The notes under the pieces were generated by a model. It was given only the letters and a program-made list of their open reading frames with translations. It did not search any database and had not been told where the DNA came from. Of a DNA stretch of 4,219 nucleotides, positions 85 through 4,214 are shown piece by piece. Position 1 is the stretch's first letter. Each line of letters opens with the position of its first letter. The DNA is from a virus (taxonomy: Duplodnaviria; Heunggongvirae; Uroviricota; Caudoviricetes): the IMG/VR virus record IMGVR_UViG_2713896899_000012; one strand, written 5' to 3'. The translations under genes were made by a program, and so were the position numbers.

Positions 85-789
85 TCACGAATTTTTCAGC
101 CACTCCCTTGCCTCGATGTCATCCAGATGACGAGATTGCTTCAGAATACCAGCCACATACTCCACCTTTGCTACTTGATGATAAGGCAACGTTATAGGCC
201 TGTGGTCCTGGTTAATGCTTGTAAATTGGTATTCTCCATCTCTGTCATAGCCAAGAACCTTAATCATGTTGTGTCCTTCAACGGTTCTGACAAACACCTC
301 ATCACCCGGGAATACTTTGGTGTTAGGCTCAATGAGTACATATTCTCCTGATTTTATTCTGGGCCACATGCTGTCTCCTTTCACACGAAGACCAAAGGCA
401 TCTGGATCATCGCTATAAATTTTGAGCCACCCATCGCGTTCTTCGGTCATCTCGATGGCACCATCAACACCAAGAATTGCCTCACCAACCACGCGCACTA
501 ACCCTTTTCTTACCTGACCGACAAAAGTTAAAGAATCTGAGCATGATGCAATTGGTGTTACATCATGTACCAAATCAAGCCACCCATTAGGTAACCCAAG
601 TGCGGCTTCGAATTTTCTTGCTAGTTTATCCCCTATGTTTCGAGTGCTTTTTTCACCGGAGACTTGCGTGAGTTGAGAAGGGCTAACTCCAAGCTTATCG
701 GCAAAGCTTGCATTAGTGTTACCCGCGATTTTTTTATGCTCATCTAGCAAAAACGCCAGATTCGATTTGCGAATATCTTTGTTTTCCAT
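85..789 (-). CDS. cI: CI-like phage repressor (N-terminal XRE-type HTH, C-terminal LexA/S24-like autopeptidase domain)
   Basis: 234-aa ORF. N-terminal segment NASFADKLGVSPSQLTQVSGEKSTRNIGDKLARKFEAAL looks like an XRE-family helix-turn-helix. C-terminal half has the S24 catalytic serine motif GDSMWP (Ser140) and a lysine 37 residues later (HNMIKVL, Lys177), the same Ser-Lys spacing as LexA. SD GAGGGAG on the minus strand (799-805) precedes ATG at 789. Divergent from a Cro-like gene, as in lambdoid immunity regions. Symbol is by functional analogy only. Confidence 0.88.
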   Translation of the reverse strand: MENKDIRKSNLAFLLDEHKKIAGNTNASFADKLGVSPSQLTQVSGEKSTRNIGDKLARKFEAALGLPNGWLDLVHDVTPIASCSDSLTFVGQVRKGLVRVVGEAILGVDGAIEMTEERDGWLKIYSDDPDAFGLRVKGDSMWPRIKSGEYVLIEPNTKVFPGDEVFVRTVEGHNMIKVLGYDRDGEYQFTSINQDHRPITLPYHQVAKVEYVAGILKQSRHLDDIEAREWLKNS

Positions 790-1868: not shown

Positions 1869-2816
1869 ATGAGCAATACAGCAAAAATCTACGATTTCAG
1901 CGCCGCACACGAGCGCAGGAGCAACAGGATGGAGAACCAGAAAACTGGTTACATTCCGTTGTACCGGAGCATTCTGAAACAGTCATGGGCGAAAGATGTT
2001 TATCTTCGCACCCTGTGGGAAAACCTTCTCCTGAATGCCGCCAGAAAGCCATACAAAGCGAATTTCAAAGGTCATGAATGGCATCTGCAACCCGGTCAAC
2101 TGGTTGTGACAGCAGCTGATTTAGGTCTTCAGTTATGCGACAGACATGGCAAGCCAGCAAGCCGTGATCAGGTTGAGCGGATGCTTCAGGTTTTTGTGAA
2201 AGAGGGGATGATCTCCATTGATGGAGAGAAGCAAAAAGGTCGTGTGATCACCATCACAAATTACCATGAATATGCTCAAAAAATGGACGATTCACCCGCA
2301 CATGAAGCCGCACAAACAACCGCACATGATGCCGCACATGACGAAGCCAGTAATGGCGCGGCTTTCAGAGTACATGCCGCACATGAAAGCGCACATGAAG
2401 CCGCACAAACAACCGCACATCATGAACAAGAAGGTATTAACAAGAATATAAATAATACCCCCCTACCCCCCAATGGGGGAGGCGATGGGCAGGTTAAACC
2501 TGAACGTCGCAAGGCAGAACGCATCGACTACGAATCCTTCCTGAACGCCTACAACACCGAAGTCGGTGACAGACTTCCACACGCTGTTGCGGTCAACGAG
2601 AAACGCAAGCGTCGCCTGAAGAAAATCATTCCGCAACTGAAAACGCCAAACGTGGACGGTTTCAGAGCGTATGTCAGGGCGTTTGTGCATCAGGCCAAGC
2701 CGTTTTACTTCGGAGACAACGACACGGGCTGGACGGCCGATTTTGATTACCTGCTGAGGGAAGACTCGTTAACGGGAGTTCGGGAAGGGAAGTTTGCAGA
2801 CAGGGGGATTGCATGA
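1869..2816 (+). CDS. O: Replication initiator protein, lambda O-like (origin-binding) with embedded origin
   Basis: 315-aa ORF. N-terminus MSNTAKI parallels lambda O MTNTAKI, and the start-region DNA AATACAGCAAAAAT matches what I recall of lambda O. Position directly after cII and before a helicase gene. The middle of the gene carries an iteron array plus AT-rich tract, as in ori-lambda. Beyond the N-terminal heptapeptide the protein is divergent from lambda O as I recall it. Confidence 0.82.
   Translation: MSNTAKIYDFSAAHERRSNRMENQKTGYIPLYRSILKQSWAKDVYLRTLWENLLLNAARKPYKANFKGHEWHLQPGQLVVTAADLGLQLCDRHGKPASRDQVERMLQVFVKEGMISIDGEKQKGRVITITNYHEYAQKMDDSPAHEAAQTTAHDAAHDEASNGAAFRVHAAHESAHEAAQTTAHHEQEGINKNINNTPLPPNGGGDGQVKPERRKAERIDYESFLNAYNTEVGDRLPHAVAVNEKRKRRLKKIIPQLKTPNVDGFRAYVRAFVHQAKPFYFGDNDTGWTADFDYLLREDSLTGVREGKFADRGIA
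2296..2426. repeat. Iteron-like direct repeat array (putative phage replication origin iterons) inside the O-like gene
   Basis: About eight tandem ~12-bp units beginning CCGCACA: CCGCACATGAAG (2296-2307), CCGCACAAACAA (2308-2319), CCGCACATGATG (2320-2331), CCGCACATGACGAAG (2332-2346), then after a 30-bp gap CCGCACATGAAAG, CGCACATGAAG, CCGCACAAACAA, CCGCACATCATGAA (2377-2426). Includes a perfect 31-bp direct repeat CGCACATGAAGCCGCACAAACAACCGCACAT at 2297-2327 and 2390-2420. Confidence 0.6.
2427..2479. other. AT-rich tract followed by GC-rich palindrome adjacent to iterons (putative origin unwinding region)
   Basis: AT-rich stretch ACAAGAAGGTATTAACAAGAATATAAATAATAC (2427-2457), then CCCCCCTA and palindrome CCCCC(C)AATGGGGG (2466-2479). 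The order iterons, AT-rich region, palindrome mirrors ori-lambda organisation. Confidence 0.5.
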
Positions 2817-4214
2817 GACAGGATATCGAAGCGAGCGTTATCGGCGGTCTGCTGATTGGTNNNNNNNNNNNNNNNNNNNNNNNNNGGATTAACACCAACC
2901 GCCAGTGACGTTCTGGCAACGCTTGAGCCGGAAGCGTTTTCAATTCCGCTCTACCGGAAAGCCTTCGAGGTTATCCGCAAGCAGGCGCGAAACAGAAACC
3001 TAATCGACGCGCTGATGGTTGCCGAAGCGTGCGGAGAGGAGCATTTCACGTCAATCCTGATGACCAGCAAAAACTGCCCGAGTGCCGCAAACCTGAAGGG
3101 ATATGCCGGAATGGTCGCGGATAACTATCACCGCCGTCTGGTGCTGGAAATCATGGATGAAATGCGTGAACCAATTCAGAGCGGAACCATCGACGCATCG
3201 AGTCAGGCGATGGATGAACTTGTAAAGCGTCTTTCAGCCATCAGAAAGCCCCGTGACGAGGTTAAACCTGTACGGTTAGGGGAAATCATCACTGACTACA
3301 CTGACACGCTTGACAGGCGTCTGAGGAACGGAGAAGAGTCAGATACCCTGAAGACCGGAATCGAAGAACTTGACGCCATCACCGGAGGGATGAACGCAGA
3401 AGACCTGGTGATTATCGCTGCTCGTCCTGGTATGGGGAAAACCGAACTGGCGCTGAAGATTGCCGAAGGTGTTGCAAGCCGCGTTATTCCTGGTTCTGAC
3501 GTCCGGCGCGGAGTGTTGATTTTCTCGATGGAAATGAGCGCATTGCAGATTGCAGAGCGGAGCATTGCCAACGCCGGGAGGATGTCGGTTAGCGTGCTGC
3601 GAAATCCTGCATCGATGGATGACGAAGGCTGGGCGCGTGTTGCTAACGGCATGAGTCAGCTTGCAGATTTGGATGTATGGGTAGTCGATGCCTCGCGGTT
3701 ATCGGTCGAAGAAATTCGCTCAATTGCAGAGCGGCACAAACAGGAAAATCCAAACCTGTCACTAATCATGGTGGATTATCTTGGACTGATTGAGAAGCCG
3801 AAAGCAGACCGCAACGACCTCGCAATTGCTCACATCTCAGGAAGCCTGAAGGCGATGGCGAAAGACCTGAAAACGCCTGTTATCTCCCTGAGTCAGCTTT
3901 CACGCGATGTTGAGAAGCGACCAAACAAACGCCCGACAAACGCAGATTTGCGTGATTCAGGAAGCATTGAACAGGACGCAGACTCAATCATCATGCTCTA
4001 TCGGGAAGCGGTATATGACGAGAACAGTAGCGCCGCGCCATTTGCTGAAATCATTGTGACGAAAAACCGTTTTGGTTCACTTGGTACGGTTTACCAGCGG
4101 TTCTGCAACGGACACTTTGTTGCATGTGACCAGGATGAAGCCAGACAGATTTGCACAGCATCAAATGCACCTGCTGCGCGTGGCAGACGATATGCACAAG
4201 GGGCTGACGTATGA
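2813..4214 (+). CDS. dnaB: DnaB-family replicative DNA helicase (phage-encoded), interrupted by an N run
   Basis: ATG at 2813 overlaps the O-like stop (ATGA), with SD AGGGGGA at 2802-2808. N-terminus [16 protein letters not shown] resembles the DnaB N-terminus (…SIEAEQSVLGGLMLD). After the N run: Walker [10 protein letters not shown] (GMGKT at 3429-3443), Walker B-like [11 protein letters not shown], and C-terminal [38 protein letters not shown], typical of the DnaB family. Reading frame before the gap (phase 2) and after it (phase 0; track ORF 2856-4214) do not connect across exactly 25 nt. Confidence 0.85.
2861..2885. other. Run of 25 ambiguous bases (N) - masked or unsequenced segment within helicase gene
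   Basis: Directly visible as n x25 in the sequence. Confidence 0.99.

Follow-up and report, generated by a model that had tools for sequence, protein, structure and literature searches.

The replication origin of bacteriophage lambda combines a set of iterons with an AT-rich tract (PMC3349717); the annotated iterons occupy positions 39034-39118, the AT-rich tract (~38 bp) comes after them, and the origin as a whole spans 39034-39160. In lambda-type Shiga toxin (Stx) phages, the binding of the O protein to the iterons has been demonstrated experimentally (PMC7466680). More generally, homologues of O and of gene 18 bear type-specific repeats within their coding regions, and in gene 18 of phage L six imprecise 11-bp repeats, TGTCCAACGGA, were proposed to form the origin, the initiator of this phage sharing 15% identity with lambda O and 25% with P22 gp18 (PMC8022706). 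The iteron origins of theta plasmids (pPS10, R6K, F and RK2) likewise involve winged-helix initiators, the Rep proteins, acting on direct repeats (PMC4980987). The present analysis concerns a stretch of 4,219 bases (hereafter, the window) from the Caudoviricetes virus record IMGVR_UViG_2713896899_000012, which comprises the part of a lambdoid prophage devoted to immunity and replication. Positions 2296-2479 of the window very probably constitute the vegetative replication origin of this prophage, located, as judged from sequence comparison, within the linker-coding part of its own O-like initiator gene. The principle of this type of origin is already published, and the element is hence less novel than was suggested by the wording of a preliminary description of the same DNA. 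What appears to be new here is the predicted architecture of 12-bp direct units in two equal clusters, by which initiators of the O family are not limited to the dyad-iteron design of lambda.

The features that make up the element, and the initiator gene that encloses it, are the following:

1869-2816, plus strand: O-like replication initiator gene, 315 amino acids (Pfam PF04492 Phage_rep_O), which encloses the complete element
1950-2285, plus strand: predicted N-terminal winged-helix DNA-binding domain, approximately amino acids 28-139 (AlphaFold2 model)
2296-2343, plus strand: iteron cluster 1, with the four units CCGCACATGAAG, CCGCACAAACAA, CCGCACATGATG and CCGCACATGACG
2344-2376, plus strand: inter-cluster spacer of 33 bp, the same length in 29 of the 29 loci compared below
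2377-2424, plus strand: iteron cluster 2, with the four units CCGCACATGAAA, GCGCACATGAAG, CCGCACAAACAA and CCGCACATCATG
2418-2458, plus strand: AT-rich tract, the predicted DNA-unwinding element, with the lowest GC content and the least stable DNA of the window
2442: approximate mosaic joint, at which BLAST matches start (query position 193 of 2250-2520)
2456-2471: C-tract duplication, TACCCCCC present twice, which runs into the palindrome
2467-2479: palindrome CCCCCA-A-TGGGGG, 42 bp past the last unit and to the right of the AT tract
2460-2816, plus strand: C-terminal domain of the initiator, of a type always accompanied by a DnaB-like helicase gene

Repeat-finding programs and a scan for the motif gave the same eight direct units of 12 bp, each composed of [C/G]CGCACA followed by five variable bases. 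The units start at 2296, 2308, 2320 and 2332, and at 2377, 2389, 2401 and 2413, all in 12-bp register, with an inter-cluster step of 45 bp and a total array length of 129 bp. The preliminary description had reported about eight repeats of this kind; the number stands, with the refinement that the array is divided 4+4 by the conserved 33-bp spacer and does not form a single continuous run. The perfect 31-bp duplication that it had noted (2297-2327 = 2390-2420) is exact, without extension on either side, and the repeats do lie, as it had stated, inside the O-like coding sequence between the N- and C-terminal domains: all are within the open reading frame (ORF) 1869-2816 and after the Phage_rep_O domain, the array being placed behind the modelled N-terminal domain and in front of the C-terminal module, which starts at about 2442-2460. 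Its in-frame translation is PAHEAAQTTAHDAAHDEA...AAHESAHEAAQTTAHHEQEG. The first ~21 nucleotides of the spacer are conserved (AAGCCAGTAATGGCGCGGCTT), and the spacer has AAGCC/GGCTT ends. As for dyad symmetry within the array, just incidental matches of 6-7 nucleotides were observed. Two extra ORFs that pass through the array (2266-2451 on the plus strand and 2292-2429 on the minus strand) were read as by-products of a stop-free repeat.

The motif SCGCACA occurs nine times in the window compared with 1.42 occurrences expected, a number reached by none of 200 shuffles, and eight of the nine copies are inside the array. The same concentration is apparent in the complete genome of phage CUS-3 (40.2 kb), where 8 of the 13 matches to SCGCACAW form the array and the other 5 are dispersed singles (chance expectation over the whole genome, about 7.3); the array is the sole cluster of the motif in that genome. 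The ninth CCGCACA copy of the window (1903-1909), which is also present in CUS-3, is located near the 5' end of the initiator gene in the codons for AAH. It was rejected as a true site, being at chance level, and the O protein of a Yersinia phage reads AERERR at this point versus AAHERR in the window.

Relatives of the N-terminal domain were collected as 28 loci from bacterial genomes (one genome per species; 67-84% identity), together with a Klebsiella phage and a Yersinia phage. The usable set comprised 29 loci with 198 units, from Enterobacter, Citrobacter, Yersinia, Brenneria, Sodalis, Pantoea and other Enterobacterales hosts. All 29 display two equal clusters (3+3 or 4+4), the exact 12-bp register, the 33-bp spacer and the same AT tract, whose family consensus is AACAAGAAGGTAATAACAA.AATA.AAA. 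The numbers of units in the two clusters are always equal, and never 3+4, despite several changes in unit number on the tree. Together with the fixed spacer, the equality of the clusters may reflect a pairing of the two in the complex.

In the matrix of the 198 units, the information is contained in positions 1-8, C-C-G-C-[A/G]-C-A-T, and there is almost none in positions 9-12. Unit position 2 coincides with a third codon position, yet 197 of the 198 units have C there; where the codon is four-fold degenerate the count is 184 of 185, versus a baseline of 27% for the N-terminal domains encoded by the genes concerned. The residue encoded at codon 1 of the unit varies all the while (P, A, T, S or G). 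Similarly, the Ala codon of the unit is GCA in 80 cases and GCG in 79, and GCC or GCT in none, these last two accounting for 50% of the Ala codons in the N-terminal domain. Column identity in the N-terminal domain over the 29 loci was 0.79, 0.87 and 0.56 at codon positions 1, 2 and 3, respectively, a profile typical of protein constraint; in the repeat clusters it was flat, with 0.73-0.77, 0.74-0.78 and 0.69-0.74. On this silent-site pattern, the repeats are constrained as DNA and not as protein, because the silent third bases are fixed, the encoded residue is variable, and the third codon position in the clusters is about as conserved as the first and second.

The same pattern contradicts an alternative which the preliminary description had itself put forward against its reading, namely that the repeats code for nothing more than a variable protein linker and have no cis function. 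In a fuller form of this alternative, the linker between the two domains is of low complexity and prone to slippage, ((A/P)-A-H-x)n, and its regularity is derived from recent duplication and gene conversion. The array is indeed translated in frame, and the number of units changes by steps of 12 bp, i.e., 4 codons (3+3 versus 4+4), but neither would account for a codon 1 whose residue varies under an almost invariant silent third base, nor for the complete avoidance of GCC and GCT. The two clusters of one genome are alike, and the 31-bp exact copy indicates that conversion or duplication does occur; homogenization of whole units is nevertheless insufficient, since positions 9-12 differ within a genome while the 8-bp core is constant. 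In addition, different genera have the register, the length of the spacer and the neighbouring AT tract in common, and a silent A/G switch, described below, tracks residues of the predicted DNA-binding helices. A role as linker alone is, in our judgment, very unlikely.

If the repeats are instead binding sites for the product of the gene in which they reside, their sequence should be considered together with that of the protein. The initiator belongs to the lambda O family, Pfam PF04492 Phage_rep_O matching amino acids 20-132 with an E value of 3.4e-15 and 56.8 bits against a cut-off of 28.7. A sequence search of solved structures with the whole initiator protein returned nothing at E <= 1. 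In an AlphaFold2 model, the N-terminal domain takes the form of a winged helix-turn-helix (HTH), with HTH helix 2 at amino acids 82-88, the recognition helix at 99-111 and a beta wing at 115-129. Most of the top Foldseek matches of the model are winged-helix regulators (CRP, MarR, CodY and RosR among them), which is consistent with the winged-helix fold but no proof of it. The protein database matches, mostly truncated entries, served solely for the structure-prediction alignment. Most of the database entries for the initiator are designated "replication protein, partial" (146-248 amino acids; P0001-P0072) and end in or just past the repeat array, which suggests that short-read assemblies often break there.

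Core position 5 is a silent site (GCA or GCG): 12 genomes have A there in all or nearly all of their units, and 17 have G in the same manner. Corresponding units of different genomes retain their individual variable tails although their cores are not the same (...CCGCACAAAGAA CCGCACATCATG in locus L012 versus ...GCGAGCAAAGAA GCGCGCATCATG in L020), which argues for a change of the core unit by unit and not for replacement of whole units. When 122 positions of the N-terminal domain were scanned for co-variation with the core type, three split perfectly with it: 82, 100 and 118, of which residue 118 is variable within both groups. Residues 82 and 100 are both located at the start of HTH helices in the AlphaFold2 model:

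2112-2114, plus strand: Ala82 codon, first residue of HTH helix 2; A in 12 of 12 CCGCACA (A-type) genomes, S or T in 17 of 17 CCGCGCA (G-type) genomes
2166-2168, plus strand: Asp100 codon, second residue of the predicted recognition helix; D in 12 of 12 A-type genomes, H in 17 of 17 G-type genomes

The A- and G-types interleave on a neighbor-joining tree of the second half of the N-terminal domain, which suggests that the core type was switched in at least two or three independent events. L020 itself looks like a recombinant, in which the second half of the domain and the repeats are of the G-type. In the G-type loci (L013-L031), some of the units read CCGAGCA, with Glu in place of Ala (38 of the 198 units). 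Such units never occur in A-type genomes, and they may represent weaker or functionally distinct predicted sites.

The AT-rich tract, which the preliminary description had placed after the repeats, proved to be both the GC minimum and the stability minimum of the window. The 32-mers of lowest GC content start at 2425 and 2426 (GC 0.19), and the 40-mers of least stability in the 4.2 kb start at 2418-2419, with a nearest-neighbour dG of -42.1 versus a mean of -54.6 (sd 3.6); the stability of the tract is lower than that of even the promoter regions of the window. Its core, AACAAGAAGGTATTAACAAGAATATAAATAATA, is near-invariant as DNA in the family, and identity at third codon positions is 0.74-0.81 (29 loci).

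The location of the array with respect to this tract also bears on the idea that the repeats are genuine initiator sites with a regulatory function (titration, handcuffing, or control of read-through transcription or translation), and that initiation takes place elsewhere. Iterons have control functions in plasmids and in lambda as well, and titration and handcuffing at ori-lambda have been discussed (PMC3349717). Pairing or looping would be well served by two clusters of the same size at a fixed distance, and a ninth core motif is available near the 5' end of the gene; that copy, however, is at chance level and apparently not kept in the Yersinia phage, and the whole CUS-3 genome contains no second cluster of the motif. 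Moreover, the array borders directly on the stretch of lowest stability in the window, this tract is conserved along with the array, and the position of both matches that of the experimentally defined lambda origin in the homologous gene. We thus regard an exclusively regulatory function as unlikely.

Beyond the right-hand end of the AT tract, where lambda has its inverted repeat, the predicted origin contains the CCCCC-type GC palindrome that had been described, CCCCCA-A-TGGGGG. Taken alone it is just marginally unusual, a stem as good or better being found in 27 of 500 shuffles, and it was not retained as an independent signal. C5/G5 stems are also present in ST104 (CCCCC TAAC GGGGG) and in L029 (TCCCCC GAT GGGGGA), with little difference in offset (+43 to +48). 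Inverted repeats at about equal offset (+40 to +48 from the last unit) were observed in the window and in L004, L010, L012, L023, L025, L029 and L031, and several C-terminal modules other than those with C5/G5 stems carry their own, differing inverted repeats at +40 to +45. Within the lambda-type group both arms change together (GAATTC-TGAC-GAATTC, GACATTC-TGAC-GAATGTC and TGATTC-TCAC-GAATCA), and the inverted repeat of L025, GTCATCT-GA-AGATGAC, was matched by none of 500 shuffles. The recurrence of inverted repeats with matching arm changes at +40 to +48 is suggestive.

Comparison with other O-like genes revealed that the region is a mosaic. Rightwards from about 2442, the window shares 87-90% DNA identity with ST104, HK446 and other O-like genes (Nil2 and phage 1717), the sequences of which are unalignable to the window upstream of this point; the N-terminal domain and repeats of ST104 and HK446 are unrelated to those of the window. 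By annotation, gene 18 of ST104 is similar to P22 gene 18, and the HK446 O to HK97 gp54. The N-terminal domain, repeats and AT tract of the window family are combined with a lambda-type C-terminus in 25 loci, and a P-like gene follows in 23 of these, i.e., wherever a full downstream ORF was found; with lambda itself included, the P-like gene comes after 24 of 26 lambda-type C-termini, with the same proviso. In many of the relatives, the array is fused to lambda's own right-hand sequence (TCGTC.GAGAATTCTG.CGAATCC). The combination with a helicase-type C-terminus and a DnaB-like gene was observed in the window and in L025, and L029 carries a third C-terminal type. The clusters formed by the C-terminal sequences coincide with those of the partner genes, such that the window, L025 and ST104 all pair with the helicase. 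In the sequences compared, the type of repeat goes with the N-terminal domain and the kind of partner gene with the C-terminal domain, the two halves meeting where the AT tract ends. Such recombination of two modules is expected if the N-terminal domain reads the repeats and the C-terminal domain recruits the helicase or loader.

This behaviour also speaks against a different occupant of the repeats, i.e., another host or phage factor such as DnaA or some other regulator, bound in place of the O-like protein. Among the mosaic relatives, a change of repeat type is accompanied by a change of the initiator's N-terminal domain, whatever the C-terminal domain, partner gene or host genus, and nothing specific speaks for another factor. 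No DnaA-box-like sequence is present in 2296-2479 with up to 2 mismatches allowed, and the interpretation of the repeats as host DnaA sites was dropped on these grounds. The probability that another factor is the true ligand appears to us almost negligible.

For the predicted origin, a course of initiation can be proposed on the model of the homologous lambda O and P22 gene 18/12 systems. The winged-helix N-terminal domain would first bind the eight 12-bp units, each comprising an 8-bp core, CCGCACAT, and 4 variable bases. The domains would be arranged head to tail, one per unit, because the repeats are direct and follow one another at just 12 bp; in lambda, dimers on dyads take their place. 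Other winged-helix proteins, of the PhoB/OmpR type, bind direct repeats of ~11 bp in a head-to-tail manner. The two four-unit clusters with their bound protein would then form a complex resembling the O-some, which would destabilize the adjoining AT-rich tract at 2418-2458. Finally, the C-terminal domain of the initiator would bring the DnaB-type helicase, encoded immediately downstream, onto the opened DNA.

Several points weigh against this interpretation of the element. A spacing of 12 bp is tight for a domain of ~110 residues, and the head-to-tail arrangement is extrapolated from other winged-helix proteins. The AlphaFold2 model is of moderate confidence (mean pLDDT 74), and its Foldseek matches in the PDB are weak, with E values of 0.005 or worse. 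The counts over 198 units are non-independent, the loci being related, and some gene conversion evidently occurs, given the likeness of the clusters within one genome (the 31-bp exact copy, for example), and could add to the within-genome uniformity. The neighbor-joining tree from which independent switches of the core type were deduced is unbootstrapped and is based on ~200 nucleotides. The palindrome, as mentioned, is marginal. In addition, none of the matching phage records examined carries a replication-origin or binding-site feature under the match.

A further proposal, which we consider a real possibility and not the expected outcome, is that the family represents a second architectural class of O-type origins. 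Its features would be one winged-helix domain per 12-bp unit, head to tail, two equal clusters 33 bp apart, and a specificity that is set by core position 5 (A or G) as read by residues 82 and 100. Were this the case, specificity would have been swapped naturally several times over (D100/A82 with CCGCACA; H100/S82 with CCGCGCA), and the rule of equal clusters would point to cluster pairing in the initiation complex. The family offers a natural test of joint specificity change between a winged-helix initiator and its sites, in which one silent base per unit and two candidate residues of the initiator are altered.

The distribution of the module lends the matter wider interest. The initiator gene is ~98% identical to the O or replication protein genes of CUS-3, JEP4, Gally, HF4s and about 48 Stx2a-converting phages, and diverged versions of the module are present in prophages of many Enterobacterales genera. 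An origin with its specificity determinants would predict replication compatibility or exclusion between co-resident lambdoid prophages, and it bears on the replication-dependent amplification of Shiga-toxin genes after induction. A known origin would also permit the construction of mini-replicons from these phages; miniplasmids have already been made from lambda and from phage P27 (PMC7466680).

A plasmid collection contained eight matching records: four of ~36.7 kb from Salmonella, one of 42.6 kb and one of 50.2 kb from Klebsiella and Enterobacter, one of 5.4 Mb from Klebsiella, and a 5,555-bp circular record from Salmonella Infantis (L116, NZ_CP148879.1). The latter comprises cI-cro-cII and just the first ~560 bases of the initiator gene, as far as the AT tract, without the C-terminal part and without the helicase gene. 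L116 was rejected as a lambda-dv-like mini-replicon; it is either an assembly artefact or a rearranged fragment of a prophage. The eight matches thus provided no evidence of a natural mini-replicon, just the 5,555-bp record having been examined beyond its listing.

The remaining genes of the window are arranged as follows:

85-789, minus strand: cI-type repressor with an S24 peptidase domain
903-1136: ORF of 77 amino acids in the position of cro, with no Pfam match at E <= 0.01
1275-1571: cII (Pfam Phage_CII, E 2e-34)
1594-1866: ORF of 90 amino acids between cII and the initiator gene, with no Pfam match at E <= 0.01
2813-4214, plus strand: DnaB-like replicative helicase gene, analogue of P22 gene 12 (DnaB_C, E 7.9e-79; DnaB N-terminal domain, E 3.2e-9)

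The start codon of the helicase gene overlaps the O stop codon (ATGA). A run of 25 N at 2861-2885 within the helicase gene is an insertion relative to CUS-3, which is continuous at this point (...CTGATTGGT|GGATTAAC...). It looks like a placeholder for a gap or a mask; as real sequence it would break the reading frame, since 25 is not a multiple of 3. The cI-cro intergenic region (808-873) contains a perfect pair of 14-nucleotide inverted repeats, CATTTTGATAAATC (829-842) and GATTTATCAAAATG (855-868), with a third, weaker copy at 808-825. These inverted repeats are probably the operator sites of the window's immunity type.

When the element is set beside ori-lambda, the layout that had been claimed for it is borne out. 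Both initiators are homologous (Phage_rep_O), both origins are situated in the linker-coding part of the initiator gene, and both present, in the direction of transcription, repeats, an AT-rich tract of ~35-40 bp and an inverted repeat, that of the window being marginal by itself. In both cases, too, the initiator consists of two domains, the C-terminal half of which is matched to the partner gene. The preliminary description was also right in that iteron sequence and unit length differ from those of lambda. The lambda origin contains four dyad-symmetric sites of 18-20 bp (ATCCCTCAAAACGAGGGA), spaced by 20, 24 and 23 bp and occupying 87 bp in total, whereas the window family has eight or six direct units of 12 bp with an unrelated core, which occupy 129 or 105 bp and lack dyads; the window does not display the lambda pattern of four dyad iterons of ~18-19 bp at a spacing of ~20-24 bp. 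Moreover, the partner of the window initiator is a DnaB-type helicase, in contrast to the P-type loader of lambda, and outside the Pfam domain the two proteins are barely alignable (BLASTP E 0.004). The distinct initiator-iteron specificity that was suggested on this basis is still a prediction, every computable consequence of which holds.

Phage L resembles the window in having short repeats (11-12 bp) in a gene-18/O-type gene of a P22-like phage, and its origin, too, was proposed from sequence alone. The two differ in repeat sequence, and their initiators are only distantly related; the comparison was made with the published description of phage L. No description of the CCGC[A/G]CAT repeat type was found in the literature searched, the coverage of which did not extend to the older papers on P22, HK620 and Sf6 or to the CUS-3 genome paper. 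The iteron origins of theta plasmids also combine direct repeats with an adjoining AT-rich unwinding element and winged-helix initiators (the latter predicted here). Plasmid iterons are typically 17-22 bp long and are located outside the rep gene, and the Rep proteins have two winged-helix domains; the units of the window, in contrast, are 12 bp long and intragenic. No plasmid Rep family appeared among the Pfam matches of the window, the initiator matching just Phage_rep_O.

On the right-hand side the window is related to gene 18 of the ST104 type. The two have the C-terminal domain from about 2442 in common, C5/G5 palindrome included, and in both the genes are in the same order, with a DnaB-like partner. 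The N-terminal domain of the ST104 type, however, is unrelated in sequence, and its repeats are four 18-bp dyads (ATTAGCCAAGTCGGCTAA) in the lambda architecture, with spacings of 20, 24 and 23 bp. With respect to the P22-type module (genes 18/12), the window therefore has the DnaB-type helicase partner but neither the N-terminal domain nor the repeats of the gene-18 type, as judged by comparison with ST104. The iterons of lambda (L114, 535-621) and of ST104 (L004, 1396-1480) are unrelated in sequence, yet they are identical in their 20-, 24- and 23-bp spacings and in the 18-bp dyad design. This suggests that the lambda and ST104 types conserve a geometry of the initiation complex which is not shared by the window family.

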